DNA of 61,231 nucleotides, filler included. It is 3 parts of 3 records of this genome, joined end to end, with 100 filler letters (N's around TTAATTAATTAA, not from the genome) between each part and the next. Parts side by side here need not be neighbours in the genome. Positions count along the whole stretch, not along the records: positions 22,762 to 46,903 come from DRR723986_3519; 2 more parts are not named here. One strand, written 5' to 3'. Numbering within the stretch: the stretch's first letter is position 1; each line of letters begins with the position of its first letter. Shown here in pieces: positions 22,662 to 47,003 of this stretch. The notes below the pieces were generated by a model. It saw only the letters and a program-made list of their open reading frames with translations, ran no database searches and was not told the DNA's origin. Made by a program: the position numbers and the translations under genes.

Positions 22662-22761
22662 NNNNNNNNNNNNNNNNNNNNNNNNNNNNNNNNNNNNNNN
22701 NNNNNTTAATTAATTAANNNNNNNNNNNNNNNNNNNNNNNNNNNNNNNNNNNNNNNNNNNN
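22662..22761. other. Artificial contig-joining spacer
   Basis: 44 N + TTAATTAATTAA (stops in all six frames, 22706-22717) + 44 N; gene content changes across it. Confidence 0.97.
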
Positions 22762-31157: not shown

Positions 31158-31265
31158 CAACTCTGGCGTCGAAAACCCTACTGATGTAGGCCCACAGGCC
31201 CCACAATAGCGGGCTAGCTGGCAACCGCCATACTTTAACTTGCTAAGAAGAAAAAAGGTTTACCT

Positions 31266-32798
31266 ATGATTGCAGCCGACAACACCCCGATTCTGGTCGG
31301 AGTCAGCCAGCAGACCTACCGCGACACCGGCAACCCCGAGCGCACCCCTACCGATGCGCTGCAGGAAGCCCTGCAAGGCGCCCTAGACAACACCGGCAAA
31401 GGCGATGCACTGCGCGGCGCCATTGACGCCCTGTGTACCGAGCCCAGCCTGTTGGAAGTCTCAGAAGAACTGGCCGCATTGCTTAACCGCTTCCCCGGGC
31501 CGGAATTAGCCAAGCGTTTGGGCTTTGATAATGCCCAGTGCCTGAAAGCCCCCGACGGCGGCAACGGCCCGCAAATGTTGATCAACCACTTCGCCGATGA
31601 GCTCAACCGCGGTAAGCGTCGCGCCGTGGCGATCTGTGGCGGCGAACTGACCGCGAGCTTTCGCACTCTGCTCGGCGGTGGCGGTGATATCGGCCACTGG
31701 CAGCAAGGCGCCAGTGGCGACACCGAACAGCCCTGGGCAGAACGCGACGGCGCCCACGCCCAGGAACACAAACACAATTTGTGGCTGCCCACCCATATGT
31801 ATGCGCTGTTTGAAAATGCGCTGCGCCACCGCTATGGCCACAGCCTTGAACAACACCAGCAGCATATCGGCAAGATCATGCAGGGTTTGAGCGACACCGC
31901 TGCCGCTAACCCCGACGCCTGGTCCTACCAACGGCCACGCAGCGCCGAGCAACTCACTGGCTTTAACGAGCGCAGCCCCTGCCTCGCGCTGCCCTATAAC
32001 AAATACCTGTGCGCCCAGATGAATATCGACATGGCCGCCGCGGTGATTATGACCACCGTCGGCACCGCACGCGAACTCGGCATTGCCGAAGACCGCTGGG
32101 TCTACCTCAATGGTTGCGCCGAAGTGAATGATGTGTGGTTTGTTGGCGAGCGCGCTGACCTTTCCCGCTCCAACGCCGTCGCCCTGGCCGGTAAAACGGC
32201 ACTGGCGCGCGCCAATTGCGAGATTGACGACATCGCCCTGATGGATATTTACAGCTGCTTCCCCTGTGCGGTGGAACTGGCCTGCGACGCGCTGGGTATC
32301 GACCCCTTCGGTGAGCGAGCACTGAGCCTCACCGGCGGCCTGCCCTACTTCGGTGGCCCCGGCCACGGCTACAGCCTGCACGCCGTCGTCACCATGGCTG
32401 AGAAACTGCGCCAGCAACCCGGCGCCAATGGCATGATTACCGCCAACGGCTGGTATATGACCAAGCAGGCCATTGGTATTTACAGCACGCGCCCTGCTCA
32501 CCAAGACTGGCAGCGCGGCGACGATGCGCCCCTGCAACAGCAGATCGACAGCCAAGACCACCCCCGCATTGATGACGCCCCGGAAGGCCCCGGTGTTGTG
32601 GACAGCTTCACTGTTGTCTGCGACGGCGATGGCCCGCAGCAAGGCATTATCGTTGGCAGCCTGGACAATGGCCGACGCTTCATTGCCCATACCGAAAAAG
32701 ACGACGTCCTGCTCGCGCAAATGATGCATGAGGATATGATCGGACGGCGCGGCGTGGTGTCCACCGGCGAGGAACACAATCTGTTTAGGTTCGACTAA
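31266..32798 (+). CDS. Thiolase-like protein (acetyl-CoA acetyltransferase family, TLP1 type with extra C-terminal domain)
   Basis: TPILVGVSQ, GGNGPQ, DIYSCFPCAV, TGGLPYFGGPG, ANGWYMTKQA, C-terminal G.V.SFTV...GRRF domain. Confidence 0.82.
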   Translation: MIAADNTPILVGVSQQTYRDTGNPERTPTDALQEALQGALDNTGKGDALRGAIDALCTEPSLLEVSEELAALLNRFPGPELAKRLGFDNAQCLKAPDGGNGPQMLINHFADELNRGKRRAVAICGGELTASFRTLLGGGGDIGHWQQGASGDTEQPWAERDGAHAQEHKHNLWLPTHMYALFENALRHRYGHSLEQHQQHIGKIMQGLSDTAAANPDAWSYQRPRSAEQLTGFNERSPCLALPYNKYLCAQMNIDMAAAVIMTTVGTARELGIAEDRWVYLNGCAEVNDVWFVGERADLSRSNAVALAGKTALARANCEIDDIALMDIYSCFPCAVELACDALGIDPFGERALSLTGGLPYFGGPGHGYSLHAVVTMAEKLRQQPGANGMITANGWYMTKQAIGIYSTRPAHQDWQRGDDAPLQQQIDSQDHPRIDDAPEGPGVVDSFTVVCDGDGPQQGIIVGSLDNGRRFIAHTEKDDVLLAQMMHEDMIGRRGVVSTGEEHNLFRFD

Positions 32799-32832
32799 GT
32801 CAATCCGCACGCGCGGCGGCTGAAAACGCCGC

Positions 32833-32868
32833 CCATAAAAAAACCGGCAAATGCCGGTTTTTTTATGG
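32833..32868. terminator. Bidirectional rho-independent terminator
   Basis: ccataaaaaaaccggca-aa-tgccggtttttttatgg between convergent genes. Confidence 0.85.
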
Positions 32869-32896
32869 CTTATCACCAGTGTGTGGCGCGTGTTAC

Positions 32897-34129
32897 CTAC
32901 GCCATCGCGCGTGCATCACCGGTTTGCTTTAGCAGTGTACGCAAAATCGCCTGACACTCTTTGCGGCTCATCAGTACCGGCACCGGATAGCCCGCCCCTT
33001 CCTTCACCGCATCCGCGGCAATGGCAGCAATATCCTCTTCACGCAGCGTATCCAGTACATCGGGCACACCCAAGCGCGTATTCAAATCCGCCACCGCATC
33101 GATAAACTTCTCTGCCGCTTTCGCATCGCCGGTGCTGGCATCGGCCACACCAATCAATCGCCCCAACTCAGCCAGCGGTTTTTCCGAGGCCTTGGCCATA
33201 AAGCGCAATACCTCAGGCATCACCAATGCGTTTGCCAAGCCGTGTGGCGTGCCGTAATGGCGCCCTAACTGGTGAGCGATCGCGTGAACATTACCCACCC
33301 CGGCGTCGTTAATTGCCATACCCGCGTAGTAGGCCGCTAACGCCATTTGCTCGCGCGCCTCGGCGTCGTTGCCGTCGCGGTAGGCACGCGGCAGGTAGTC
33401 GAAAATCATTTTTACTGCAGCAAAGCCGTAGCCATTGCTGCTCTCGGTGCCCCACAGGCTGATGTAGGTTTCCACCGCGTGGGTCAGCGCATCCATTCCC
33501 GTGGCGGCGGTAATCGGTGCAGGCATACCGAGCAGCAGATCCGCGTCCAACGCCACCGCTTTGGGCAGCATTTTCGGGTCGGCCAAAAAGCACTTTTCAT
33601 GACTCGCCGGGTCGGAAATTACCGCAGCGATGGTCGCTTCTGAGCCAGTACCGGATGTCGTCGGCAGTGCAAATAGCGGCACAGGTGCCGCTTTTACTTT
33701 GAAGTAGCCCTCAAGCTTACGACCGTCGCGACCATTGGTAGCCGCTGAGGAAATTGTCTTGGCGCAGTCAATTGACGAGCCACCGCCAATCGCCAATATC
33801 GCATCGCAATTGTGCTGCTGTTGCAGGGCCAGGCCTTGATCAACCATTGCAAAGGTTGGGTCGGGAAGAATGCCGTCATAAATTACGCACTCGACACCCT
33901 CTTCCTTCAACACATCAACGGCCTTACCGACAATGCCCAGCTCCACCAAAATTTTATCGCTGACAATTAACACCCGCTGCGCGCCTTGGCGGGCGATATG
34001 TCGACACAGCTGCGCCGTGCTTCCCTGACCGTTGAAGGCCATATACGCGAGCGACGGCATCAACTTGAAGGGAATAGCGATCAACGCCAGATACGTGCGC
34101 TGTAGCAGGGTTCTAAAAAATTTACTCAT
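32897..34129 (-). CDS. Iron-containing alcohol dehydrogenase (probable start MSKFF at 34129)
   Basis: AIGGGSSIDCAK, PTTSGTGSE, GMDALTHAVE, HAIAHQLG...HGLAN. Confidence 0.92.
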   Translation of the reverse strand: MSKFFRTLLQRTYLALIAIPFKLMPSLAYMAFNGQGSTAQLCRHIARQGAQRVLIVSDKILVELGIVGKAVDVLKEEGVECVIYDGILPDPTFAMVDQGLALQQQHNCDAILAIGGGSSIDCAKTISSAATNGRDGRKLEGYFKVKAAPVPLFALPTTSGTGSEATIAAVISDPASHEKCFLADPKMLPKAVALDADLLLGMPAPITAATGMDALTHAVETYISLWGTESSNGYGFAAVKMIFDYLPRAYRDGNDAEAREQMALAAYYAGMAINDAGVGNVHAIAHQLGRHYGTPHGLANALVMPEVLRFMAKASEKPLAELGRLIGVADASTGDAKAAEKFIDAVADLNTRLGVPDVLDTLREEDIAAIAADAVKEGAGYPVPVLMSRKECQAILRTLLKQTGDARAMA

Positions 34130-34211
34130 CCTTAACTCCATAGCAGGACAGTGATTCTGTAATAGCCAGTTCGGTATACGTAGTGGCTACCGACCAGTGG
34201 ATCATGCCTTA

Positions 34212-35765
34212 TCAGGCAGTTTCGCCCTGATACTTAGGCACGATACTCGCGCGCAGTTCTTTTTTCAGTATTTTGCCGCTGGGGTTACGTGGCAGCGCCG
34301 CCACATATTCGATCAGCTTCGGCGTTTTAAACCCGGCCAGTGAACTGCGACAGTGTTCAACCATCTCATCGACGGTGATCTCACCGTCTTCAGCTGCCAC
34401 CAGCACGGCCAGGGGAACCTCGCCCCATTTTTCGTCCGGCACACCAATCACCGCTGCATCGGCAATTTTCGGGTGAGACATCAATACATTTTCAACTTCC
34501 GCGGGATAAATGTTTTCGCCCCCGGAAATAATCAAATCCTTCACGCGGTCTTTAATAAACAGATAGCCGTCTTCGTCCAGATACCCGGCGTCGCCGGTAT
34601 GCAGCCAGCCGTCCACCACCGTTTTTGCGGTGGCCTCTTCGCGCTTCCAATAGCCCTTCATCACCTGTGGGCCACGGCCGAGAATTTCGCCCACCTCGCC
34701 GGTAGGCAGCGTATTGCCCTTGTCGTCGACAATACGCAACTCGGTGCCAAAAACCGCGCGACCGCAGGAGCGCAGCAATTCAGGCTTGCCCTGCAGAGCA
34801 CGCATGTGATCGTCGTTGGTGAGGAAGGTCAGTGCGGTGGTCGACTCCGTCTGGCCATAGCCCTGATAAAACTCGCAGTCGAAGACTTCCAAACAGCGCT
34901 TTAACAGATCCACCGAAATCGGCGACGCGCCGTAGTTAATCCAGCGCAGATTCGGGAATTCGTATTTCTCGATATCGGGAATGCAGGCCAAAGAGAACTG
35001 CAGCATCACCGGCACCACAGAAACATAGGTGATGTTCTCATTGGCCATGGTCTCGATCATGCCAATGGGGTCGTAGTCGCGGTGCAACACCAACTCGCAG
35101 CCGTAATACACCGCCATCAAGGCACCCACCAAACCCAGGGCATGGAAGGTAGGCGCGATAATTAAGGCGCGGTCACCGGCGCGCGGCGCGCGGCCAGTGG
35201 TCAGCGGCGCTTGAATGCTGTTACAGATCAAATTGCGGTGGGTCAGCAAAGTGCCCTTAGGTAAACCGGTGGTGCCGCTGGTGTACATTTGAAACAGCAC
35301 ATCGTCGCCGTTCAGGGTCACTGCGTCCGGCGTCAGTGGTTCGCCCAGCCACTCGTTTAAGGGCACTGCGCCATCGACGTCACCCACAATAGAAACCCGC
35401 TCCACACCGGCCAGGTAGGAGCCGATCAATGGCGCAAATTCGCCGTCGACAAACAGCATGCGTACGTCGGCGTCTTCAGCAATAAAGCCAACCTCATCGG
35501 CGGTAAGGCGGTAGTTAATGCCTACCGGTACCACACCGGCGCGCGCACAACCGAGAAAAACCAGGAAGTTGTCCAGGGAGTTTTTGCTGAGAATGGCCAC
35601 TCGGTCACCCTTGGTGATGCCGCGTGCCTGCAAGCGCGCCGCGACGTGACCCATTTTCTGCCAGGCGTCGGCGTAGCTTAAATGGCTGTCCGCATCATTG
35701 CCGAAGGGCGCTTCGGGGCGCATTTTTGCCTGAAAGGCCAGGTACTCAACAAAACTATCAAACAT
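34212..35765 (-). CDS. Long-chain fatty acid-CoA ligase (FadD-like), probable start MFDSF at 35765
   Basis: YTSGTTGLPKG, YGQTE, GWLHTGDAG, DRVKDLIISGGENIYPAEVE, PRNPSGKILK; AAGGA RBS. Confidence 0.92.
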   Translation of the reverse strand: MFDSFVEYLAFQAKMRPEAPFGNDADSHLSYADAWQKMGHVAARLQARGITKGDRVAILSKNSLDNFLVFLGCARAGVVPVGINYRLTADEVGFIAEDADVRMLFVDGEFAPLIGSYLAGVERVSIVGDVDGAVPLNEWLGEPLTPDAVTLNGDDVLFQMYTSGTTGLPKGTLLTHRNLICNSIQAPLTTGRAPRAGDRALIIAPTFHALGLVGALMAVYYGCELVLHRDYDPIGMIETMANENITYVSVVPVMLQFSLACIPDIEKYEFPNLRWINYGASPISVDLLKRCLEVFDCEFYQGYGQTESTTALTFLTNDDHMRALQGKPELLRSCGRAVFGTELRIVDDKGNTLPTGEVGEILGRGPQVMKGYWKREEATAKTVVDGWLHTGDAGYLDEDGYLFIKDRVKDLIISGGENIYPAEVENVLMSHPKIADAAVIGVPDEKWGEVPLAVLVAAEDGEITVDEMVEHCRSSLAGFKTPKLIEYVAALPRNPSGKILKKELRASIVPKYQGETA

Positions 35766-35806
35766 GGAGTCTTCCTTATCGTTTTTATCAGAGGGCGCGC
35801 GCCCCG

Positions 35807-36937
35807 CTACGCAGCCTGCGGCCCGTAGCGCAGCGCCGCAAACCGCCGACGTTGCCAATCACTGTCACCGAACAGGGTGTCGATAACCATTAGTCGCTTT
35901 AAGTAGTCGCCAATGCTCAGCTCTTCCGTCACGCCCATACCGCCGTGAAGCTGCACCGCTTCCTCGGCGACTGCGCGGCCGTGTTTGCCGACCATGGCTT
36001 TCAGAGCCGCCGTATCACTGGCTGCCTGCGCTTCACCACCACTGTGCGAACACAGCGCACGCACCAGTAGCGAACGGCATTGCTCAGTGGCCGTGTACAT
36101 GTCCACCATGCGGTGTTGTAGGGCCTGGAATTTGCCGATGGGCTGACCAAACTGCTTGCGGGTATTGCTGTATTCCACCGTTTCTTTCAGCAGCTTTTCC
36201 ATCGCGCCAACCGCTTGAGCCGACACCGCGATAGTCGCTTCGGTAATCACCGTTTCGACCATTGCCAGAGCGGCATCGCCATCGCAGATCACGCTGTCGC
36301 CGGTGAGCTCCACCGCATCGAATTGAATATTCGCGACGCGCTGGCCGTCCATCAATTTGAAGGCATCGCGCTGTACGCCATTGCTTGTCGCGGGTACCGC
36401 AAACAGTGTGTAGGCGTCATCCAGCCACGCTGCCACAACCAGCACATCGGCGGCCGCGCCGTTGAGCACCAGCGTTTTACTGCCGCTCAGGCGATATCCA
36501 TCAGCACTGCGCTCTGCGCGGCAGTCCATGGCGTCGAGCTGGTGGCGGCTACGGCGTTCCTGATAGGCAAACGCGGCGTGGCAGCTGCCCGCCATAATTT
36601 CTTCCAGGTAGCGGCCTTTTACTGCCGCGTTATTGCCGCGCGCAATCAACTGAGCGCCCAGCAGAATCGAACCCAGATAGGGCTCAACGGCAACGCTGCG
36701 ACCCATGGCTTCCATTAGCACAGAGGTATCCACCACCGAACCGCCAAAACCGCCTTCCTCTTCGGGCAGGGGCACGGTCAGCCAACCCAGCTCGGCGTAG
36801 TCCTGCCACACCTTGCCGGAAAAGCCTGTCTCTTCAGCCAGGTACTGCCTGCGTTGGTCGGCGTCGTAACGCTCGGCCATGTATTTATCGATACTGTCTT
36901 TGAGCAGTTGCTGCTCAGCATTGAGTGAAAAGTCCAT
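35807..36937 (-). CDS. Acyl-CoA dehydrogenase (probable partner subunit of a heteromeric pair)
   Basis: RKQFGQPIGKFQALQHR, QLHGGMG; adjacent to a second ACAD gene. Confidence 0.9.
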   Translation of the reverse strand: MDFSLNAEQQLLKDSIDKYMAERYDADQRRQYLAEETGFSGKVWQDYAELGWLTVPLPEEEGGFGGSVVDTSVLMEAMGRSVAVEPYLGSILLGAQLIARGNNAAVKGRYLEEIMAGSCHAAFAYQERRSRHQLDAMDCRAERSADGYRLSGSKTLVLNGAAADVLVVAAWLDDAYTLFAVPATSNGVQRDAFKLMDGQRVANIQFDAVELTGDSVICDGDAALAMVETVITEATIAVSAQAVGAMEKLLKETVEYSNTRKQFGQPIGKFQALQHRMVDMYTATEQCRSLLVRALCSHSGGEAQAASDTAALKAMVGKHGRAVAEEAVQLHGGMGVTEELSIGDYLKRLMVIDTLFGDSDWQRRRFAALRYGPQAA

Positions 36938-36946
36938 AACGCCCTC

Positions 36947-38125
36947 CTACAGCCCCAGCCCAAATTTCGCGATGATATTTTTTTGTACTTCGTTACTGCC
37001 GCCGTAAATGGTGCAGGCCCGACCGTACATGTACTCCCGTCGCGCTTGGTCGCCGTAGTCATGGCCCAGCGATGACAAATCGGCATCGGCCGGCAGCACG
37101 CTGCCGTACAGCCCCGCCACATCAAAGAACAAATTCTGCACAGCCTGTTGCAGCTCCGTACCTTTGAGCTTGAGCAGGGACGACTCCATGCCCGGTGCGC
37201 CGCCATTGGCCACAGTGGCCAGTACGCGCAGCTCGGTGTATTCCAGCGCCATCAACTCCATTTCAATGTCGGCCATGCGCGCCTGAAACGTGGGGTTATT
37301 CAGCAGCGGCTGGCCGTCGTCGTTCTCATCGGCCGCCAGCTTGCGCACGTTATTCAGCACTTGCTTGCAGTAAGCGATACCAGACAGCGCAGTGCGCTCG
37401 TGGCTGAGCAGCGCCTTGGCATAGGTCCAGCCCTGATTCTCTTCACCAATGCGGTTTACCACCGGCACCCGCACGTTTTCAAAGCTGACTTCGTTTAAGT
37501 GATGCTCACCATCAATGGCAATAATCGGCGACACGGTGATGCCAGGCGTGCGCATATCAATCAGCAAGAAGCTGATGCCCTGCTGCGGCTTGCCGCTGTT
37601 GTCTGTGCGTACCAGCGCAAACATCCAATCGGCATACTGGGCGTAAGTGGTCCAGATTTTAGTGCCGTTAATCACATAGTCGTCGCCATCGCGTTCGGCG
37701 CGGGTTTGCAAACCGGCCAGGTCACTGCCCGCGCCCGGCTCGGAGTAGCCCTGACACCACCAGGTGTCACCGTTGAGAATGCCGGGCAAGAATTGCTGCT
37801 TTTGTTCCTCGGTGCCAAAGGTGTAAATCACCGGCCCGACCATCTTCAAACCAAAGGGCGGCACATCCGGCGCGCCGGCTTCAGCCAGGGCGCTGTCGAA
37901 AATGTATTTCTGGGTATCACTCCAACCACAGCCGCCGTGTTCAACCGGCCAGCCCGGCGCGACCCAACCCTTGTCAAAACGCTTTTTCTGCCACTCAATG
38001 GTCGCGGCTTTAAAGGTTTTGGGGTCGCGAATTCGCGCGGCCATGTCGTCGTTAAAATTGTCGCGCAAAAACGCCCGAACTTCCTCTTGGAAGGCGAGCT
38101 CTTCTGCAGAAAATGTCGCGTGCAT
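36947..38125 (-). CDS. Acyl-CoA dehydrogenase
   Basis: WCQGYSEPGAGSDLA, INGTKIWTT, IYGGSNEVQKNII. Confidence 0.93.
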   Translation of the reverse strand: MHATFSAEELAFQEEVRAFLRDNFNDDMAARIRDPKTFKAATIEWQKKRFDKGWVAPGWPVEHGGCGWSDTQKYIFDSALAEAGAPDVPPFGLKMVGPVIYTFGTEEQKQQFLPGILNGDTWWCQGYSEPGAGSDLAGLQTRAERDGDDYVINGTKIWTTYAQYADWMFALVRTDNSGKPQQGISFLLIDMRTPGITVSPIIAIDGEHHLNEVSFENVRVPVVNRIGEENQGWTYAKALLSHERTALSGIAYCKQVLNNVRKLAADENDDGQPLLNNPTFQARMADIEMELMALEYTELRVLATVANGGAPGMESSLLKLKGTELQQAVQNLFFDVAGLYGSVLPADADLSSLGHDYGDQARREYMYGRACTIYGGSNEVQKNIIAKFGLGL

Positions 38126-38247
38126 AGCTTTCTCTCTATTATTGGCAGGCCACGCTGCATCCTGAATCTAGGCTATCAGCAGCGTACAGAAAGGGGTTAG
38201 TCCCCGGGCGCCGTTTGTTGGCAGCGGCCGACCCGGGGCAAGCAGAC

Positions 38248-39021
38248 TTACCGCGGCTGCATGCGAATGCCGCCGTCCATACGGATCACTTCAGCATTGA
38301 GGTAGTCGTTGTCGATTATGTGCATCGCCAGGCTGGCAATTTCCTCGGGCTGGCCGAGGCGCTTGGGGTTAAGTACCGACTGCGCCAACGACTGGCGCGC
38401 TTCTTCAGGCAAAGACGCCAACAGCGGCGTGTCGATCAAGCCCGGTGCAATGGTGTTTACGCGAATGCCGTAGCTCGCCAAGTCGCGGGCAATTGGCAGC
38501 GTCATGCCAACAACACCGCCTTTACTGGCGCTGTAGGCAGCCTGGCCAATTTGGCCGTCGAAGGCGGCAACCGATGCGGTGTTGATAATCACCCCGCGGC
38601 CACCAAATTCGTCGATGGGGTCCTGCTTGGCCATGGCTTCAGCCGCCAAGCGCAGCACATTGAACGAGCCCACCAGGTTAATGTCGATCACACGCTTAAA
38701 CTGGTCCAGCGGGAAGGCGCCCTGCTTGCCCACTGTTTTAATGGCGTTGCCAATACCGGCGAAATTACAGCAGATGTGAATCGCGCCGAAGGCCTCCAAA
38801 CAGGCCTTCACCGCCGCTTCCACAGAGGCTTCGTCCGCCACATTGGTGGCAACAAACAGCGCTTTGTCACTGCCCAGCTGCTCAGCCAGGGCCTGACCGA
38901 GGGCTTCGTTCATATCCAGAATGGCGACCTTGCCGCCCGCTGCCACAATCGACTCAACCGTCGCTTTACCCAAACCCGATGCACCGCCGGTGACCAGGGC
39001 AACTTTTCCGTTTACATCCAT
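38248..39021 (-). CDS. SDR-family 3-hydroxyacyl-CoA dehydrogenase (HSD10/type II-like)
   Basis: TGGASGLG, NTASVAAFDGQIGQAAYSASKGG, RMDGGIRM. Confidence 0.92.
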   Translation of the reverse strand: MDVNGKVALVTGGASGLGKATVESIVAAGGKVAILDMNEALGQALAEQLGSDKALFVATNVADEASVEAAVKACLEAFGAIHICCNFAGIGNAIKTVGKQGAFPLDQFKRVIDINLVGSFNVLRLAAEAMAKQDPIDEFGGRGVIINTASVAAFDGQIGQAAYSASKGGVVGMTLPIARDLASYGIRVNTIAPGLIDTPLLASLPEEARQSLAQSVLNPKRLGQPEEIASLAMHIIDNDYLNAEVIRMDGGIRMQPR

Positions 39022-39056
39022 CTTTCTACTCCTAAACGTTATGAGTGAAACCGCGC

Positions 39057-40229
39057 CTAGGCGCGGTCAACAAAGGGAACGAAGCTGTCGGCGAATACAT
39101 CGCGGGCAATAATCAGCTTCATAATTTCTGAGGTACCGGCAAAAATGCGGGTAATACGCGCGTCGCAGTACATACGGGAAATCGGATACTCGTCCATGTA
39201 ACCCGCACCACCGTGCAGCTGCACGCCTTCGTCAACCATGCGGCACAGCAACTCACTGGTATACAGCTTGGCTTTGGCGGCATCTTCTGCGGTTAACTGA
39301 CCACGGTTATGCACCGCAACACACTGGTCGACATAGGCCTGGGCCACGTCCAATTCGGTGCGCAGTTCGGCCATTTTGAACTGGGTGTTCTGCATTTTTG
39401 ACAGCGGCTTACCAAACACCTTGCGCTGCTCACAGAATTCACGCGTCACTTCAAACGCCTTCTGCGCTGAAGACAAAAAGCCGCAGGCGCCAATCAAACG
39501 CTCTTCAGCCAGACCTTCCATCAGGTAAATAAAGCCCATGGTTGGGTCGCCCAGTACGTTCTCTTTGGGAATACGCACTTCATTGAAGAACAGTTCGGCA
39601 GTGTCCTGCGCCTTCATGCCCATCTTCTTCAAATTGCGGCCGCGCTCGAAGCCTTCCATGCCACGCTCCACCAAAAACAGGCCCATCGCGTGGGGGTTGT
39701 TTTCCGGGTCGGTCTTGGCCGCTACGATCACCACATCGGAATTAATGCCGTTGGTGATATACGTTTTGTTACCACTCAGCAGCCAGTGGTCGCCCATGTC
39801 TTTAGCCACGGCGCGCATACCCGCAAGGTCGGAACCGGCGTCGGGCTCGGTCATCGCCACTGCCAGAATCAATTCACCACTGACGCAGCGCGGTAAAAAG
39901 CGCGCCTTTTGCTCTTCACTGCCAAAGCGATCTATGTAGGGGCCAACCAAACGGCTGTGCAGGGTATTCGCCCAGTCACCGGCGTAAACGTTGGCGGTTT
40001 CTTCAATAATGATCTGCTCAAAACGGAAGTCGCGGTCGCCCATGCCGCCGTACTGCTCGTCGGGCCAAACCATCAAAAAGCCCTGTTCACCGGCCTTTTT
40101 AAATACCTCCCGGTCAACAATGCCCTGCTCGCGCCAGGCATCCACATTCGGGGCCACTTCCTGTTCCAGGAATTTGCGGTAGGCCGAACGAAACATTTGC
40201 TGCTCTTCTGTAAAATCTCTGGGAAGCAT
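39057..40229 (-). CDS. Acyl-CoA dehydrogenase (long-chain type), probable start MLPRD at 40229
   Basis: AMTEPDAGSDL, GNKTYITNG, QDTAELFF, QLHGGAGY, IFAGTSEIMK. Confidence 0.92.
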   Translation of the reverse strand: MLPRDFTEEQQMFRSAYRKFLEQEVAPNVDAWREQGIVDREVFKKAGEQGFLMVWPDEQYGGMGDRDFRFEQIIIEETANVYAGDWANTLHSRLVGPYIDRFGSEEQKARFLPRCVSGELILAVAMTEPDAGSDLAGMRAVAKDMGDHWLLSGNKTYITNGINSDVVIVAAKTDPENNPHAMGLFLVERGMEGFERGRNLKKMGMKAQDTAELFFNEVRIPKENVLGDPTMGFIYLMEGLAEERLIGACGFLSSAQKAFEVTREFCEQRKVFGKPLSKMQNTQFKMAELRTELDVAQAYVDQCVAVHNRGQLTAEDAAKAKLYTSELLCRMVDEGVQLHGGAGYMDEYPISRMYCDARITRIFAGTSEIMKLIIARDVFADSFVPFVDRA

Positions 40230-40517
40230 GGTTCTTCTCTCGTTATTCAATCGGCGCGCTGGCGCCGAGGTTTGTTTTTCCTGCCAGAGCCGAGGCTCGG
40301 CACTGCGTGTCGACGCACAGCATCGCCTCGCCGCCCCCAAAGCGGCAATGATTGACCGTGACAACCACTTGACATTTTCTTACAAAAAACGGGAATCCCC
40401 CGCCCACTGGCGCGTGTCGACCACCGCCGTCGCCTGCCGACTAGACCCTAAAAAACGCCTGCCCTACTGTGTCTGCCAAGATGTGCCGCACTGCGGCTAG
40501 CCACAACGAGGAACACC

Positions 40518-41876
40518 ATGAACAGCACCAGCGTTGACTACCAAGACTACCCGCGCCAACCCAATCGCAAGCTGACGCATATTCCCGGTGACAGCGGCCT
40601 GCCCCTGTTCGGCCAGACCTTCAGTTTTTTGAAGAACTACAAAGCGCTCACCGAAATGCGCTACCGCAAATACGGCAAAATTTCGCGCGGCAATACCCTG
40701 TTCCAACACAGCCTGACCCTGCTCGGCCCCGAAGCGAACGAACTGGTACTAAAAAACAGCGACGGCCAGTTCTCCAGCATGCTGGCCTGGAACCCATTAC
40801 TGGACAGACTCTTCCCCAACGGGCTGATGCTGAAAGACGCCGAGGCCCACCGCTACGACCGTAAAATTCTGCAAGGCGCGTTTAAAAAGGCTTCTATCGA
40901 AGGCTATTTGCACACCATGAGCCCGCACCTGGAGCGCGGTCTGGAAGAATGGCCCAAGGGCAAAGAGTTCCACTTTCAACACGCCGTAAAACAACTGCTG
41001 CTGGAAGTGGCCGCCGAGGTGTTTTTAGGTGTGGAAATGGGCGAAGAAGCCAGCGGCGTGAATACCGCCTTCGTGGACACCATGCTTGCCTCAATGGCGG
41101 TATTAAAGCTCCCCATCCCCGGCACGCTTTGGCACCGCGGCCTGACCGGCCGCAAACATTTAGAAGACTTTGTAATGGCGCATATCGACGATAAGCGCAA
41201 ACACGAAGGCCGGGATATTTTCTCGCAGATCTGCCACGCCACCGATGAAGACGGCAACTACTTCTCCGACGAAGCGGTGCGCGACCATATTATTTTCCTA
41301 CTGTTCGCTGCCCACGACACCACAACCAGCACGCTGTGCTCCATTGTTTACGCACTGGCCAAGAACCCCGCGTGGCAGCAGCGGCTGCGCGAGGAATACG
41401 CGGCTATCGGCAAAGACCAGCTCGACTACGACGACCTGAATAAACTCGACGACAGTAAACTGGTGTTTAAAGAAGCCCTGCGCATGTATCCCCCCGTGCC
41501 GGCCATTCCGCGCCGCACTCTGAAAGACATGGACATTTTTGGCTACCACGTGCCCAAAAACACCGCAGTGGCCATCTCACCGCTACTCACCCACTACATG
41601 GAAGAGTATTGGAGCAACCCCAATGACTTCGACCCCGAACGCTTTTCCAAAGAACGCGCCGAAGACAAAAAGCACTTCTTCCAATGGGTACCCTTTGGCG
41701 GCGGCGCACACAAATGCCTGGGCCTGAACTTTGCCGAAGTGCAAACCAAGCTGTTCCTGTTCCACCTGCTGCGTCGCTACAACATAAAAGTGAAAGACGG
41801 CTATGAAATGCCCCGCAGCTGGGTGCCGCTGATCTTCCCTGCCGACGGCCTGCCTGTGAGCTTCGAGCCCATCTGA
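40518..41876 (+). CDS. Cytochrome P450
   Basis: I-helix AAHDTT, ExxR (EALR), FDPERF, heme motif FGGGAHKCLG. Confidence 0.95.
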   Translation: MNSTSVDYQDYPRQPNRKLTHIPGDSGLPLFGQTFSFLKNYKALTEMRYRKYGKISRGNTLFQHSLTLLGPEANELVLKNSDGQFSSMLAWNPLLDRLFPNGLMLKDAEAHRYDRKILQGAFKKASIEGYLHTMSPHLERGLEEWPKGKEFHFQHAVKQLLLEVAAEVFLGVEMGEEASGVNTAFVDTMLASMAVLKLPIPGTLWHRGLTGRKHLEDFVMAHIDDKRKHEGRDIFSQICHATDEDGNYFSDEAVRDHIIFLLFAAHDTTTSTLCSIVYALAKNPAWQQRLREEYAAIGKDQLDYDDLNKLDDSKLVFKEALRMYPPVPAIPRRTLKDMDIFGYHVPKNTAVAISPLLTHYMEEYWSNPNDFDPERFSKERAEDKKHFFQWVPFGGGAHKCLGLNFAEVQTKLFLFHLLRRYNIKVKDGYEMPRSWVPLIFPADGLPVSFEPI

Positions 41877-41896
41877 AACGACTAGTAAAACCATCT

Positions 41897-41934
41897 AACG
41901 GCGGCTCGCGTACACGGGCCGTCGTTTTTATTTT
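41897..41934 (+). terminator. Rho-independent terminator after the P450 gene
   Basis: aacggcggctcg...cgggccgtcgtt followed by tttatttt. Confidence 0.7.
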
Positions 41935-42082
41935 CAGTGGATACTTATGCTTAGCAACGCTCCGCTATCGCGATGCGCGAACGTCCTGCGTGCCTTCGCG
42001 CCAAGCACCGCCGTGCGCCGTTAGACTGCACAGCGATGAATAAGTAGGCCACCACACAACATAACTGCACGAGAAAACCACC

Positions 42083-42520
42083 ATGCCCGCTCCTTACTTC
42101 CCCGAATGCGAAAGCTCAGACTGGCAAACCATGCCAATGGTAGAAGGCACCTCCTTCGACAGCCACCTCGGCGCATTTGAATTTCGTAAACTCGGCAATA
42201 ACACCGCCCAGGCCCGCTTTGGCTGCGACGACAACAGTAAAAATATTCAACACGGCATACACGGCGGCTACCTCGCCGCCCGCGCCGAACAAGTGTTTTA
42301 TCTGCCACTCTATACCGAGCGCTGCGTGGCATTGGGGCGCGTGGTCACCATCGATTTCAGTATGCAGTTTTTACAGGGCGGCAAGCTCGGGCAAGATATC
42401 ATCGCCGATGTTGAGCTACTTCAGGAAACCGGCCGCATGGGCTTTACGCGCGGCACGCTCAGTCAGGCAGGAAAGATACTGTGCAGCTTTAGCGCCACAC
42501 TACGAAAGTTGCCCGCTTAG
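42083..42520 (+). CDS. PaaI-family hotdog-fold thioesterase
   Basis: NIQHGIHGGYL, VTIDFSMQFL, TGRMGF. Confidence 0.85.
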   Translation: MPAPYFPECESSDWQTMPMVEGTSFDSHLGAFEFRKLGNNTAQARFGCDDNSKNIQHGIHGGYLAARAEQVFYLPLYTERCVALGRVVTIDFSMQFLQGGKLGQDIIADVELLQETGRMGFTRGTLSQAGKILCSFSATLRKLPA

Positions 42521-42575
42521 GGCTTAATCGGCAAGAAAGCGGCAGTGGAGCGAAATGGAGTACGCGGAGCAAACG

Positions 42576-42791
42576 CTACTTCCAACCCTGCCGCCAGTTA
42601 TCCGTATTCTTCAACACCGTCCAGTCAATCGACTCGGTGCGCTTGGACATTACCGCCTCAATCACGCAGTCCACCACCGCTCCCTCTTCATCAAACTCCA
42701 CCTCCGTCACCATAAAGTGCTTTTCTTTGTTGACTGGCTGAACCGCCGTCCACTTGCTGTGGAGGAGTTTTTTGGGGTTGATAGGGTTCAT
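42576..42791 (-). CDS. Small Trp-rich conserved protein (TIGR02450-like)
   Basis: INPKKLLHSKWTAVQPVNKEKHFMVT...IEAV...IDW..LK....WRQGW; AAAGGAG RBS. Confidence 0.8.
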   Translation of the reverse strand: MNPINPKKLLHSKWTAVQPVNKEKHFMVTEVEFDEEGAVVDCVIEAVMSKRTESIDWTVLKNTDNWRQGWK

Positions 42792-42933
42792 GGTGAAGTT
42801 TGCTCCTTTGCGGCTCATGATACGAAGGCCGCACGGCTATATGGGTGTAGGTATCTTTACAGGTCAACGCATCCTGAACTATACGAGGAATTGCATCAAA
42901 CCGGGGTACTAAGCGAGCGCACGCCGCGCCTGG

Positions 42934-43650
42934 TTAGGGCTTTCTACACTTTCTAATATCTCGAACTAAGAAAGAATTCCCCTGCCCTCGCTTAAGCTCG
43001 AACAGATCAATTGCTTTGAACAGACTACTCAGATTTTTGAACCCGTAGTTTCTACAATCGAACGACGTCCTGTTAGAGATGTTTGCACCAACAGGCCCTA
43101 GAGGTGCCCAACCATCTTCATCTTCAGTGGCCTCAATTGCCTGGCGTAGAAGATTTATTAGCTTAGTATTGGATTTTATATTCTTCGGTTTAGAACTCTT
43201 TTCAGATTCTATCTCTTCGGAGTGATCCAGAAAGAGAAATTTTGAGCATGCATTTACAAAAGGTGCAGGTGTCTTTCGTTCACCGAACCCCAATACCACC
43301 TTCCCCTCGGCCAGTGCTCTCGTCACCATTGGAGTGAAATCACTATCCGATGAAACAAAGCACATAACATCAATGTCTTTGGTATACATGACGTCCATCG
43401 CGTCTATAACCAAAGCTATATCAGACGCATTTTTACCCTTGGTTAGGTCATACTGCTGCACTGGCTGGATAGCGTACTCATGAAGCAGGTCTTCCCATGG
43501 CTTGAGATTTGGCGACTTCCAGTTTCCATACGCCTTACGTATCGTCACCACTCCGTACTTTGCTACCTCGCTGAGGACATCTTCGAACCTGCTGGCCGGC
43601 GCGTTGTCAGCATCAATAAACAGGGCTATTTTTTGTTTTATCTCGTCCAT
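42934..43650 (-). CDS. NYN-domain (LabA/DUF88) protein with C-terminal OST-HTH/LOTUS domain; cassette 5
   Basis: IALFIDADN, RKAYGNW, KNASDIALVIDAMD, SSDSDFTP, FDCRNYGFKNLSSL; stop lies within CCCTAAC. Confidence 0.88.
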   Translation of the reverse strand: MDEIKQKIALFIDADNAPASRFEDVLSEVAKYGVVTIRKAYGNWKSPNLKPWEDLLHEYAIQPVQQYDLTKGKNASDIALVIDAMDVMYTKDIDVMCFVSSDSDFTPMVTRALAEGKVVLGFGERKTPAPFVNACSKFLFLDHSEEIESEKSSKPKNIKSNTKLINLLRQAIEATEDEDGWAPLGPVGANISNRTSFDCRNYGFKNLSSLFKAIDLFELKRGQGNSFLVRDIRKCRKP

Positions 43651-43685
43651 CTTTAACTCATTCACCCTTATTAGATTTTGTGCCA

Positions 43686-43746
43686 TGGTAACGGGTGTCA
43701 ACAGCGTGCAGTTATAGTTGGCGCTCCGTTGACCACAACGTTACGT
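43686..43746 (-). other. attC site (61 bp) after cassette 4
   Basis: Minus strand ACGTAAC...gtcaac-gg-agcg...cgct-gttgac...GTTACCA; inner inverted repeat with a bulge. Confidence 0.7.
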
Positions 43747-44103
43747 GTTGTTCCGGCCGTTGAAGTAGAAGGCAGTTACACCGCCAATCAATGTACCTGC
43801 GAAAGCGAGAAACTCGGGGAAACGCGGATTATTGAAGAGTGCAAGAACAAATACGAAAATCAGGATCAGAAACACGATCCCCATGGCCAGTAACGGCTTG
43901 GTTCGTTTATTCAAGCGCTCAGTCGTCGGTTCAGACTGTCCGAGTCCACCACAAGTACCACAGGCCAGGCCAACGAAGTCTCTACCCTTTAATTCGTGGT
44001 ATTTCGCACAAGCCAAACAACTCGAGCCATTTGGCCCAGACTTACAGACACCCGTCTCCTCACAGTGACGACAAGGATACAAATTCGACCTTACTTCCTG
44101 CAT
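43741..44103 (-). CDS. Hypothetical Cys-rich (DnaJ-zinc-finger-like) protein with two C-terminal TM helices; cassette 4
   Basis: CRHCEETGVC, CLAC, CGTCGGLG, followed by two hydrophobic segments. Confidence 0.8.
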   Translation of the reverse strand: MQEVRSNLYPCRHCEETGVCKSGPNGSSCLACAKYHELKGRDFVGLACGTCGGLGQSEPTTERLNKRTKPLLAMGIVFLILIFVFVLALFNNPRFPEFLAFAGTLIGGVTAFYFNGRNNT

Positions 44104-44121
44104 TTCTATACTTCCCTGTAC

Positions 44122-44179
44122 ACCTAACGCCTATGCACACCTGCGGACATAAGCCGCGTAGGGCTGCGCTTTCTTAAAT
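44122..44179 (-). other. Damaged attC after cassette 3 (right arm intact, left arm missing)
   Basis: Minus strand ATTTAAG (ATTTAAC expected)...gtccgcaggtgtgcataggc-GTTAGGT. Confidence 0.6.
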
Positions 44180-44635
44180 GGCTCTCGGCACTCGATCTTC
44201 CTGAGCCACACGTTGATTTAATTGCCGGAGTTTATTGAGAGAGATTTGAAACTGGCCATTACTCGGCATCCGCTTCCCTTTGAATTGCTCCCAAACAAGG
44301 TCTCCTGGCCCGTTGTAAATTTCCTCAAACGTACCGTCAGACATGATCTTTATGATAATCGTATGCTGCGGCTGACTCCGAAATGCTACAGAGTTGGATT
44401 GCGTTGCCTTGATCTCAACTTCCAAGCCGCATTCGGTGATGGCGTCATAGCCTTTGTTGGACGCAGTCTTGAGATCGAGTTTGTATGCATCAGCAACAAG
44501 GCACTCACCTAAACTGCCAACCATATGGCCGTCCGGGGTAAAATGCCTACCCGGGAACATCGCCTCCAATTCGCTGACCGTGGCATAGAGTTGCTTGACC
44601 AAAGTCCGAAATTTATCGTGATCGATCATAGGCAT
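44174..44635 (-). CDS. PD-(D/E)XK restriction-endonuclease-like protein (DUF6998-like); cassette 3
   Basis: FTPDGHMVGSLGE...GYDA...VEIKAT; ATG overlaps the upstream core site GTTAAAT. Confidence 0.78.
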   Translation of the reverse strand: MPMIDHDKFRTLVKQLYATVSELEAMFPGRHFTPDGHMVGSLGECLVADAYKLDLKTASNKGYDAITECGLEVEIKATQSNSVAFRSQPQHTIIIKIMSDGTFEEIYNGPGDLVWEQFKGKRMPSNGQFQISLNKLRQLNQRVAQEDRVPRAI

Positions 44636-44723
44636 TTAACGCCAGCCGCAACGGCGCCAAAATAAGCGCAGCGTTTTTGGTATCCGGCGACCGTAGGGAG
44701 CATATTGCCGGCTCTTGTTAACC
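44634..44723 (-). other. attC site (90 bp) after cassette 2
   Basis: Minus strand GGTTAAC aagagccggcaa...ccaaaa acgctgcgctta ttttgg...ttgcggctggc GTTAAAT. Confidence 0.85.
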
Positions 44724-46010
44724 ATCGCCTGCGGCTGGCTCCGTTTTGGCATATTGCTTTAGACCGACATCAGTCAGCCACTCGTCAATCTCACCATCTT
44801 TTACATTTTTATTCGTTCTCATTGCATTTATAACAGCCCCTATTTCAAAACTATTTCTAATTTCAAAATTTTCACCGCAGGCCCTTATAATTTTTTCAAC
44901 CTGCTCTTTTGTAAAATCAGACGCATATCGAGTAACCGTTGCTGAAAAGCTGTTTGCCTGATCGAAAGACCCTGATCCCGCGTATAATTCAGCTATTCGA
45001 TCTCCAACTTGGATTGGCAAATCAAAGAATAATGGTTCTGCTATCTCTGCCCTTGTTGTTTTTAGGAGGCGCCTTTGAGCCGACTTTGCTAACCCCTCAT
45101 GTGAAAGCAATAAATCGAGGTCATCAAGATTGTCGAGCGGGAGATTCTCAACGTATGATTCAAGCTTTTGCTTCACATCTGACTCTAAATACTCCCAGCT
45201 TTCCGTAAGCCTTTGAATCACTATAAACGTCTTAAAAAGTTCGTTATCGGAAAGAGTTCTAATTATATTTGATAGCTTTGTTTTTAATGTATCCACATAG
45301 ATTTCTTTGTGTATTTCCTCAATAGCATTAAGTGCTGACGAAATCCTCCAGCCTTCCTTGTAATCAATTTTTTCTTTTAACAACCTTTTCAATAGAACGA
45401 CTACAAAATTTCTAGTTAAGCTTTCCCTAGCTTTAAATAGAGGACTATTCCTAAGCGCCGTTACTGCCTTACTAAGATTTGTTGGGAAGTATTCAGATTT
45501 TACCTCACTAATGAGGCTTTCAAGGGCGTACTTACCTTGCGCAGGTGGGAACTGTAGCAAATATTCGACAGCCGAACGAATATGAACTCTCGCGAGCTCG
45601 GCAGAGGGATTAAATATCTCACCATCCGATGTCATCGAAGGATGCGCACATCTATTTCTATCTTGCTGCAACCTCTCTAAGTCTATGAATTCAATGTGGG
45701 AAATAAGTTCTAGTTTGTCCCTAGCTTTTTGAAGTATGTCTCTTTCAAATTTTAACGAGCTGGCGATATCTCCTGCTTTCCTTGCCTTTTCGAACTCTTC
45801 CAACTGCAGCTCTGCTTCTTTATCGCCAGCGAGAGATAGATCTTTCAGCTTATCAATAATGTCGAACGAAACCGCGATCCATGTAGATACGATAGCTGAT
45901 CGAAATGCGCCAGATTTATAGCAGGAAACAGATTCTTTAATGTAACTTTTTGCCTTCTCATCTCTGCACTTGAGAACAAGTTCATCTAAATCTGACAAAG
46001 GTGATGCCAC
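44718..46010 (-). CDS. Hypothetical 430-aa protein with N-terminal HEPN-like RxxxxH motif and helical C-terminal region; cassette 2
   Basis: AAAGGAG RBS + GTG; ESVSCYKSGAFRSAIVSTW...DRNRCAHP; stop lies within GGTTAAC. Confidence 0.82.
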   Translation of the reverse strand: MASPLSDLDELVLKCRDEKAKSYIKESVSCYKSGAFRSAIVSTWIAVSFDIIDKLKDLSLAGDKEAELQLEEFEKARKAGDIASSLKFERDILQKARDKLELISHIEFIDLERLQQDRNRCAHPSMTSDGEIFNPSAELARVHIRSAVEYLLQFPPAQGKYALESLISEVKSEYFPTNLSKAVTALRNSPLFKARESLTRNFVVVLLKRLLKEKIDYKEGWRISSALNAIEEIHKEIYVDTLKTKLSNIIRTLSDNELFKTFIVIQRLTESWEYLESDVKQKLESYVENLPLDNLDDLDLLLSHEGLAKSAQRRLLKTTRAEIAEPLFFDLPIQVGDRIAELYAGSGSFDQANSFSATVTRYASDFTKEQVEKIIRACGENFEIRNSFEIGAVINAMRTNKNVKDGEIDEWLTDVGLKQYAKTEPAAGDG

Positions 46011-46027
46011 TAGATACTCCTTTAGAT

Positions 46028-46147
46028 AGTTAACGCCAACCGCAGAGGCAGACAGAACGGAGCGCCTTTTTTGCTAATTGTTGAGCGCCAGCTAATAGCA
46101 CAAAAGGCACAGAATTTTGGCTGTCCGAATGCCGATTTTTGTTATGT
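46028..46147 (-). other. attC site (120 bp) after cassette 1
   Basis: Minus strand ACATAAC...gcctttt.tgcta...tagca..aaaaggc...GTTAACT, a long imperfect palindrome. Confidence 0.85.
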
Positions 46148-46651
46148 GATATTTTCAGTTTTGTTTTTCCGGATTTCGGCATTTCTAAACTCAACGTTCA
46201 CGCCCTCTAGGTTAAATCCGCTCTTTACAAATTTAGAAACCACACACTTAAACTCACAATGAACTCCAATATAAGAGCGATTATCCTTCCATAACCTAGC
46301 TATATGATTGGCCTTGGATTCAGGAATATCTCCATGCAAATATAGCTGCGCGACCTCCCCCGATTTGTATATAGAACTTTTAATATGCTGAATTTTTATT
46401 TCACTTCCGGCACAGAAAAAACTGAACTCAGACCTATCCAGCTCCACCTCAAATGGAGACATGTTGATTATTTGAAACCAAATTCCATATGTAGGCGGCT
46501 CGCCTAAATCTACACTTACCGAGCTATGGCGGGCCTTTACGTCAAAAATAATCAAATCCGCCAAGCGCTGCCGGTTAAATATCCGTTTCAGAATCCAATT
46601 CGGCAACCAACGTAGCCAACGCCATATTTCAGTTACGGATAAGATTTCCAA
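46142..46651 (-). CDS. Orphan hypothetical protein (169 aa); cassette 1
   Basis: AGGAGG RBS + TTG; AT-rich; stop lies within ACATAAC. Confidence 0.75.
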   Translation of the reverse strand: MEILSVTEIWRWLRWLPNWILKRIFNRQRLADLIIFDVKARHSSVSVDLGEPPTYGIWFQIINMSPFEVELDRSEFSFFCAGSEIKIQHIKSSIYKSGEVAQLYLHGDIPESKANHIARLWKDNRSYIGVHCEFKCVVSKFVKSGFNLEGVNVEFRNAEIRKNKTENIT

Positions 46652-46659
46652 TTCGTCCT

Positions 46660-46903
46660 CCTAACTCACATACATTTGCATATCGCGCACGCTCGGTTTG
46701 CCTGGGCACAACTCTGCGACCCAATAACATAAGCGATTGAATTTACGCGTAAACGGACGTATTCACACAAAACCGGGGATTGTGATAACGCGCATGCGCA
46801 TTTATCTTGATGGCGGGGTGTCATAGCTCTTGCCCGTATTTCCTTATGTGGCTGTTTTGCCGCGCATTTTTGTAAATCGCTCAGGATTAACGCGCATTCC
46901 TTG
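46660..46903 (-). promoter_or_regulatory. Putative attI / cassette-promoter region
   Basis: Non-coding, no attC palindrome; junction ...atgcaaat-GTATGT matches cassette 1's expected core GTTATGT minus one T. Confidence 0.45.
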
Positions 46904-47003
46904 NNNNNNNNNNNNNNNNNNNNNNNNNNNNNNNNNNNNNNNNNNNNTTAATTAATTAANNNNNNNNNNNNNNNNNNNNNNNNNNNNNNNNNNNNNNNNN
47001 NNN
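46904..47003. other. Artificial contig-joining spacer
   Basis: 44 N + TTAATTAATTAA (46948-46959) + 44 N. Confidence 0.97.

Follow-up and report, generated by a model that had tools for sequence, protein, structure and literature searches.

Can a run of co-oriented, AT-rich genes that is cut off by a contig end be recognised as an integron cassette array, and does it form a bank of anti-phage systems? The question is raised by positions 46903-42862 (minus strand) of a window of 61,231 nucleotides, the whole stretch of DNA analysed here. Three contigs make up this window, joined by linkers at 22662-22761 and 46904-47003 that each consist of two 44-N runs flanking TTAATTAATTAA, and the genes in question lie on the middle contig at its high-coordinate end, where it stops at 46903. 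A preliminary description, made from the letters alone, had proposed a cassette array loaded with nuclease-like and orphan genes. Overall, we consider it probable that this part of the chromosome holds an integron cassette array which has kept its attI site and lost its own integrase, in other words a cluster of attC sites lacking an integron-integrase (CALIN) that retains attI. Its layout would be a leader ending in ...CAAATG|T, followed by four cassettes, a NYN-LOTUS gene and core DNA (Table 1).

In integrons, the bottom strand of attC forms a hairpin that the tyrosine recombinase IntI joins to attI at G|TT; attI x attC recombination inserts promoter-less cassettes head-first, and attC x attC recombination excises them. 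These steps are established for the family and inferred for the locus described here. The closest relatives were identified via a P450 gene in the flank and are two genomes, Spongiibacter marinus DSM 17750 (genome G001, locus L001) and Neomelitea salexigens DSM 19753 (genome G002, locus L002), both about 96-97% identical to the window in the flanks (96.75% between window 30519-43659 and L001). Judged by this identity, the source genome is a marine, Spongiibacter-like one close to S. marinus.

Two intact attC sites mark a cassette array

The array contains five co-oriented open reading frames (ORFs) on the minus strand, the last of which (ORF5) can be read from 43701 or from 43650. These had been described as AT-richer than their surroundings and as ending with their TAA inside heptamers resembling inverse cores, all of which we confirmed at the quoted positions: the stop codons of ORF1 to ORF5 sit within ACATAAC, GGTTAAC, ATTTAAG, ACGTAAC and CCCTAAC, respectively, and GC content is 0.39-0.47 in the array region (0.41-0.50 cassette by cassette) compared to 0.54-0.63 in the flanks. 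The four core heptamers starting with GTT were likewise found where they had been reported, with GTTAACT ending at 46028, GTTAAAT at 44634, GTTAGGT at 44122 and GTTACCA at 43686. Re-reading the sequence also upheld the agreement, at 6 of 7 positions in cassettes 2-4, between the inverse core and the core at the cassette's own 5' boundary. Since the motif itself dictates four of the seven positions, this leaves matches of 2/3, 3/3 and 2/3 and a joint chance of roughly 4e-4 by hand estimate.

Two crude scores and Rfam were uninformative about these sites. A scan for arm complementarity over all AAC...GTT pairs in the window (2720 candidates) did not separate them from background (attC2 scored 19 and attC4 18, with a background maximum of 26), constrained DNA folding energies did not set them apart and failed to separate even the training sites of the models described below, and Rfam returned no match at gathering scores across the whole window. 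Minimum free energy (MFE) z-scores of attC1-3 were unremarkable (0.03 for attC3). We therefore built covariance models from the attC sites of other genomes. The R1 model was trained on five attC sites, taken from two arrays of G002 and from the one with which G001 contig C10 begins; sites of G001 contig C13 were left out because the first MAFFT alignments (A2-A4) were structurally inconsistent, and site G1locB_1 (L103:6487-6584) because of its weak outer stem. The R2 model was trained on 28 R1 matches (E ≤ 0.5) from 18 loci of seven genomes, five of the 28 being R1 training sites. Both models were trained without sites from the window and were run on the whole 61 kb and both strands with filters off. 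As a control, R1 gave co-oriented hits in true integrons, downstream of attI and divergent from intI (six in locus L130, four in L137 and three in L138).

R1 produced nine matches and R2 eight at E ≤ 10, and with either model only attC1 and attC2 were significant (third-ranked E of 0.65 and 0.37, respectively). attC1 scored 29.3 bits (E 5.8e-5) with R1 and 38.2 bits (E 9.5e-7) with R2, and attC2 26.6 bits (E 2.8e-4) and 34.0 bits (E 9.9e-6). Both lie on the minus strand and each begins at the stop codon of its ORF, which is the arrangement of at least two co-oriented, model-recognised attC sites, each after an ORF, that characterises integron cassette arrays and CALINs and establishes the array here. 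A covariance-model check that had been suggested for three stretches thus came out positive at 46028-46147 and 44634-44723 and negative at 43686-43746.

The inner sites have decayed. The inverse core of attC3 ends in AAG and the site is degenerate. attC4 was traced through the homologues of ORF4: in 17 metagenome loci that carry them, R2 found 22 attC hits in nine loci, all 22 on the strand of the ORF, and in five metagenome loci the attC begins at the stop codon of the ORF4 homologue. The GTTACCA heptamer aligns with an internal ATTACCA of the attC in five metagenomic copies (alignment A12), and the ancestral core position reads GGC|ACAAAAT (43681-43675) instead of GGC|GTTA. On this alignment evidence, attC4 is a true attC site that has lost its canonical core. 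An alternative hairpin of 61 nt that ends in GTTACCA (43746-43686; fold z -2.2) may or may not substitute for the lost core. Of the four attC elements proposed earlier, those at 46028 and 44634 therefore stand as intact, the one at 44122 as degenerate, and the one at 43686 as homologous to a true attC whose original core is gone. Cassettes 1 and 2 would by their look be mobilisable, while the inner array, with the degenerate attC sites of cassettes 3 and 4, appears to be fossilising; since two of the four sites are degenerate, the array looks partly fossilised, unlike an active bank.

Table 1 Features of the array and its surroundings (window positions).
Feature	Position	Strand	Details
Artificial contig joint	46904..47003	.	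2 x 44 N around TTAATTAATTAA; array not contiguous with DNA past the joint
attI-homologous leader	46673..46903	-	Homology to intI-adjacent regions; cut at 46903 by the contig end
Cassette 1	46034..46672	-	ORF1 46651-46142, 169 aa; attC1 46147-46028, 120 nt, intact
Cassette 2	44640..46033	-	ORF2 46010-44718, 430 aa; attC2 44723-44634, 90 nt, intact
Cassette 3	44128..44639	-	ORF3 44635-44174, 153 aa; attC3 44179-44122, 58 nt, degenerate
Cassette 4	43682..44127	-	ORF4 44103-43741, 120 aa; attC4 43746-43675, by homology
NYN + OST-HTH/LOTUS gene and terminal segment	42862..43681	-	ORF5 from ATG 43650 to 42934, 238 aa
Flanking core gene, DUF2389 tryptophan-rich protein	42576..42818	-	Pfam 4.3e-22; conserved in L001 and L002

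A leader homologous to attI precedes the cassettes

The leader corresponds to the 3' ~231 bases of an intI-attI intergenic region, with a predicted attI crossover between G46673 and T46672. A family search with the leader found matches in 11 of 40 genomes. Two of them (G040 and G024) have an intact, divergently oriented intI (384.6 and 381 bits, cut-off 265) at a distance of about 300 bases from the element, and in G016 the element adjoins an intI fragment. This homology to intI-adjacent sequence, together with the divergence between strains at 46672/46673 (see below), places an attI-like site with its G|TT crossover at the head of the array and establishes the attI homology at the level of sequence.

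In the two closest genomes the leader is a dispersed repeat of ~235 bases, present at three loci in G001 and three in G002, each without integrase and each with strain-specific cassettes; the copy at L001 13165-13396 is 85% identical to that of the window. Every copy ends in ...AATG|TTA, the sequence that follows differs between G001 and G002 at the orthologous locus, and small co-oriented ORFs with attC sites follow each copy in both genomes. The end of our contig at 46903 is explained by this repetition, as the leader occurs at three loci per genome. In the S. marinus copies a TonB-receptor gene with its terminator or other unrelated genes abut the leader.

Between intI and the leader, loci L130, L131 and L132 carry a CTGT-N8-ACAG-like sequence (alignment A6, columns ~155-175), presumably a LexA box, that is missing in all orphan copies, from which this part and all sequence on the intI side are gone. 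Comparison of the leader with Rfam gave nothing beyond noise (E > 1). A frame of 52 codons in the leader (46824-46666) ends precisely at the attI crossover in the window, L001 and L103. It was rejected as a gene, since its copies differ at many non-synonymous positions and the one in L104 is interrupted early by a stop. Interpretations of the ~235-base repeat as a miniature inverted-repeat transposable element, an IS200/IS605 end, a riboswitch leader or a group II intron remnant were dropped once the intI-adjacent copies had been found. G040 has three loci for integron integrases, of which one contains an internal stop; the leader is present there in three copies, only one of which has intI next to it.

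Strain and metagenome comparisons place the cassette boundaries

At the S. marinus locus (L001), the homology with the window upstream of the cassettes runs to ...CAAATGT and then stops; the NYN gene alone is present there, directly behind attI, and cassettes 1-4 are missing. A DNA search of G001 and G002 found these four cassettes nowhere. The same locus of G002 holds other cassettes and an IS3 element and lacks the NYN gene. The conserved chromosome starts again at the DUF2389 gene, with the L002 homology reaching window position 42830.

To natural variation we turned through the contigs of four public runs (X1-X4), compared with window 42400-46903; in X1, which may be the source sample, 0.82 of the sampled words were present, and stretches of the array had no coverage in X2-X4. 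Two X1 contigs match the leader and part from the window at 46672, the predicted attI crossover, and one X2 contig parts from it at 44640, the G of the GTTAAAT of attC2. A 690-base contig of X1 carries attC2 alone (44637-44720) in different surroundings, and in a 2927-base contig of the same run 42931 is connected to 44178 through six other letters, so that ORF1-3 are kept and ORF4 and the NYN gene are absent. According to these strain and metagenome sequences, the cassette boundaries fall at the predicted G|TT points. The attC/cassette architecture that had been regarded as established from the start is thus borne out by model matches, by the homology of the leader to attI, and by strain and metagenome differences that coincide with whole cassettes.

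IS3-family elements were seen within, or in place of, the 3' half of attC sites at L002 13250-13915 and L105 6900-7220 and downstream of the leader in L104 and L107, and three loci have the same end sequence (...TAGTAGACGCCTAT...) after a truncated attC, which suggests that these elements target attC sites and cause the contig breaks of G002. Read by eye from translations, a ccdA/ccdB-like pair at L002 12400-12860 (plus strand), in opposite orientation, replaces the NYN gene in G002. S. marinus DSM 17750 has a second cassette array at L101 (contig C13 of G001, 1400-4600), where its neighbours are a tyrosine-recombinase gene and the 3' end of a tRNA; the seven R2 attC hits are all on the plus strand and the ORFs between attC sites all on the minus strand, so that the genes of this array appear to be antisense to the attC orientation throughout.

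The integrase of the array is most likely lost

A tblastn search with six IntI proteins found no IntI-like frame in the window, and no intI lies on the low-coordinate side, along 24 kb of contig; the definition of a CALIN asks for none within 4 kb. Upstream of the leader, loci L001 and L105 carry a TonB-receptor gene, a terminator and ~115 bases, with no intI. Searches with TIGR02249 gave no hit on G001 contig C7 and no IntI above the cut-off in G002. The sole true IntI of G001 (433.5 bits) is encoded next to lipA where contig C5 ends, has a different attI and no copy of the leader motif beside it, and is 42-46% identical to the cognate IntIs of the leader (G040_C1 and G024_C14; 73% identity between these two); the array belonging to the G001 IntI probably resumes where contig C10 begins. 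About 25 bases are shared, inverted, between the end of C5 (L081 2484-2515) and the start of C10 (L102 61-90), and may be an inverted repeat in the intI-attI region of this lipA-linked integron. The cognate IntI type was found in neither G001 nor G002.

Extrapolating from these closest genomes, the integrase has most likely been lost in the strain of the window as well. The simplest reading is that S. marinus formerly had several integrons of the G040 type, whose integrases were lost while the attI-headed arrays were retained.

Proteins encoded by the array

The preliminary description had seen nuclease motifs (HEPN, PD-(D/E)XK and NYN) in three of the cassettes. All three families were confirmed and family membership is established for ORF2, ORF3 and ORF5; the NYN gene, however, has no attC. 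A suggested PADLOC check of the ORFs also returned matches, to PD-T7-3 for ORF2 and to mREase_II for ORF3.

ORF2 matches the PADLOC profile PD-T7-3 (PDLC04108) with an E value of 1.3e-33 over residues 8-385 (profile 6-396 of 432), and PDB 9wxf, a solved dodecamer named 'Dandelion', with 8.8e-17. Its N-terminal HEPN motif Rx4H (R118-N-R-C-A-H123) aligns to RHLSAH of 9wxf and sits at 118-123, compared to 117-122 in DARNA. On sequence grounds, ORF2 is a full-length homologue of the PD-T7-3/DARNA family of HEPN RNases, similar to it in its full-length profile match and in length (430 aa versus 432-460). It differs from these systems in that its match to the solved protein 9wxf reaches only 8.8e-17 and spans residues 11-287, and in that its gene forms part of an integron cassette of a marine gammaproteobacterium. 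According to the accessible parts of the sources, a selection for phage defence in E. coli yielded PD-T7-3 (Vassallo et al. 2022, PMC9519451), which was later described as DARNA, a HEPN anticodon nuclease with R117/H122 whose activator is single-stranded DNA (ssDNA) bound by phage single-stranded DNA-binding protein (SSB); ssDNA-activated tRNA cleavage, abortive infection and dodecamer formation are known there for E. coli DARNA only (bioRxiv 10.64898/2026.02.22.705581). By analogy, cassette 2 would act like DARNA/PD-T7-3: ssDNA bound by phage SSB would activate the HEPN anticodon nuclease, and the infection would be aborted.

ORF3 belongs to Pfam DUF6998 (9.9e-59), a family with 1326 representatives at E ≤ 0.001, and matches PADLOC mREase_II (7.6e-7). 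A family profile made from 57 of 150 listed members, selected for full length, matched PDB Eco15I (8q5m) with 7.7e-5, whereby residues E44, D64 and E74-I-K76 align with the E, AD and QIK of Eco15I. E44, D64 and K76 are near-invariant in these 57 members and position 74 is E or Q. The AlphaFold model (pLDDT 96.5) retrieved only NhoI or Eco15I among its top ten Foldseek matches in the PDB (TM 0.39-0.54, E 7e-5 to 1.4e-3). Both are described in the accessible portion of their source as BisI-family endonucleases that require methylated cytosines (PMC11347163). Similar to that family, ORF3 is modelled as a small single-domain PD-(D/E)XK fold with the helix Glu, the 'xD' and the '(E/Q)xK' aligned, and it has no methylase partner; unlike it, ORF3 is filed in Pfam as DUF6998 and carries E instead of Q in its (D/E)XK motif. 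We conclude that ORF3 is a probable BisI-like PD-(D/E)XK nuclease, with a probable anti-phage role. The target specificity of BisI enzymes, which cleave GCNGC containing 5mC or 5hmC, was not transferred to ORF3 because identity is too low. By analogy, cassette 3 would encode a small dimeric endonuclease, plausibly specific for modified DNA, and such specificity is proposed to be the reason why ORF3 could stand alone without a methylase.

ORF5, whose true start is probably ATG 43650, matches Pfam NYN (134.5 bits, 5e-39, cut-off 24.2) and OST-HTH (57.9 bits, 9e-16, cut-off 23.8). The terminal segment behind it (42939-42862) starts with CCCTAAC and ends with GTTGACC; it shows no arm pairing and no attC-like fold, and R2 matched it in neither the window nor L001, where both ends are mutated and CCCTAAC reads CCCTAAA. 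The NYN-LOTUS gene has no attC. The fifth ORF had been counted as a cassette; its CCCTAAC stop heptamer is confirmed, but no foldable attC follows it.

That two ORFs match no recognised family was also borne out, as PADLOC, Pfam, NCBIfam and PHROGs gave no match for ORF1 or ORF4, and neither contains a nuclease or NTPase motif. ORF1 combines N-terminal helices with a beta-rich domain and has three homologues among 5.8 billion clustered proteins; its structure model is of low confidence (pLDDT 59) and gave no Foldseek hit at E ≤ 0.001, and a LEA_2-like or generic beta-sandwich assignment (0.86) is a lead only. Three CxxC pairs are among the seven Cys of ORF4, and a hydrophobic segment comes after them at about residues 68-90; ORF4 has 64 homologues, several of which are labelled 'DnaJ' by their sources. 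A search for ORF4 in 401 genomes of the class gave no match, which carries no weight as there was no positive control. Expression of the cassettes and any defence activity are inferred.

Weighing of alternative explanations

Several observations weigh against a CALIN that retains attI and carries two defence-type nucleases. Two of the four proposed attC sites fail both covariance models, which are narrow and represent the AAC-AAG...GGC-GTTA type: the element at 44122 gave a partial match only (E 3.6 with R1 and 3 with R2), and the one at 43686 none up to E 10 in the window. The X1 joint 42931/44178 lies at inverse-core ends, not at G|TT, and is not predicted by canonical attC x attC recombination, and the junction before the NYN gene (TTACCATGGCACAAAAT in the window versus TTAAGG in L001) indicates more than one clean insertion. 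A scan for sigma-70-like consensus in the leader region of L001 (13100-13600) found no site. ORF3 is only remotely similar to the BisI enzymes (18-21% identity, TM ~0.5), and its dependence on DNA modification is a guess. Finally, the contig ends inside attI at 46903, so that the strain of the window may have an intI beyond. The background-level arm-complementarity and folding scores, the unremarkable MFE z-scores of attC1-3 and the lack of Rfam matches could be taken to suggest that no integron is involved and that a foreign-gene islet arrived by another mechanism, its attC-like palindromes being due to chance or to terminators. This reading is effectively refuted: R1 and R2 hit precisely the proposed coordinates, with E values of 1e-5 to 1e-6, and nowhere else, the leader is homologous to intI-adjacent attI, the boundaries lie at G|TT, and ORF4 homologues elsewhere sit in attC arrays.

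A complete and active integron, with a divergent intI just beyond 46903 as the preliminary description had anticipated, would agree with the intact intI some 300 bases from the same attI type in G040 and G024, with a view that ends inside attI, with the intact attC1 and attC2 and with a first cassette that varies among strains. We nevertheless regard it as quite improbable, since in both closest genomes the TonB receptor, terminator and ~115 bases lie immediately upstream of the element, the orphan copies lack the LexA-box-like sequence and the intI side, the cognate IntI was not found in G001 and G002, and the contig break is accounted for by the repeat. An array of undescribed single-gene anti-phage systems, with ORF1 and ORF4 as new defence genes, is likewise an improbable explanation. 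Its appeal lies in the neighbouring cassettes 2 and 3, which encode defence or defence-like nucleases, in the extreme rarity of ORF1 and the wide spread of ORF4 as a mobile cassette, and in phage defence by integron cassettes as reported in the accessible parts of two studies (10.1101/2024.07.02.601719, PMC12614218). However, both nucleases fall in described families, ORF1 and ORF4 show neither a family match nor a nuclease or NTPase motif, and most cassettes of chromosomal arrays have no known function, so that defence neighbours are weak evidence. The earlier suggestion of undescribed single-gene systems was thus overstated, as ORF2 belongs to the characterised PD-T7-3/DARNA and ORF3 to DUF6998, which resembles the BisI family. 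What holds of the proposed bank of anti-phage systems is one known and one probable nuclease; an active bank is not supported, given the degenerate inner attC sites. We therefore retain a CALIN with attI as the preferred interpretation of the array.

Relation to known systems

In the accessible sections of Cury et al. (2016, PMC4889954), a CALIN is an attC cluster without integron-integrase, and one way in which it can arise is that, among several integrons, one loses its integrase. The array resembles such CALINs in its at least two attC sites with cassettes, the probable lack of intI nearby, the degeneration of some attC sites and the presence of a complete integron at another place in a sister genome. 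Unlike the CALINs described in those sections, it keeps an attI/intergenic leader recognisable by homology, and one leader type heads three separate integrase-less arrays per genome. In the same text attI was sought by exact match to classes 1-3 only, and CALINs that retain attI would be invisible there for this reason. A literature search for attI-bearing leaders at several integrase-less loci found no description, on a thin basis.

As far as the available text of the studies on defence cassettes goes, integrons as stores of phage defence are already in print. The array is similar to sedentary chromosomal integrons, as portrayed in accessible text, in its chromosomal position, its small promoter-less cassettes and some defence genes, and it differs from them in having only 4-5 cassettes, probably no integrase at the locus and attC sites of 58-120 nt that are partly decayed. 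A paper entitled 'Sedentary chromosomal integrons as biobanks...' reportedly treats chromosomal integrons as phage-defence stores. In Xanthomonas, intI is said to be often degraded, whereas in Spongiibacter it is cleanly absent, with no pseudogene in its place, and there are three copies of the platform. Judged by the accessible part of the Xanthomonas work, a genus-wide study (10.1101/2025.06.18.660453), the array is similar to those chromosomal integrons in being ancient and fixed at its locus.

The findings add a marine case in which a DARNA/PD-T7-3 abortive-infection nuclease and a BisI-like nuclease are carried as integron cassettes, and reading inverse-core and core heptamers without tools was able to reveal a true cassette array. 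Less expected is that a recognisable attI persists without integrase, in three copies per genome and with cassettes that vary between close strains. If these attI sites are still used, such CALINs would be landing pads, not mere debris, and CALINs could be sorted by origin via attI homology. In a bolder version, Spongiibacteraceae would keep several orphan attI platforms (~235 bases with a G|TTA end, without the integrase and LexA-box side) that still gain and lose cassettes, including defence genes, and that are served in trans by a distant IntI (42-46% identity) or by transformation and homologous recombination via the leader arm. We consider this rather doubtful; if true, copies of attI, not whole integrons, would be the maintained unit. 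For the discovery of defence systems the yield is modest, and the two small cassettes with ORF1 and ORF4 merit a phage screen.

Further observations in the window

Outside the middle contig, the first contig has low GC content (0.41-0.48) at window 9000-11000, and beside this stretch lie very long ORFs of 1233, 1630 and 1842 aa (window 10856-21696).

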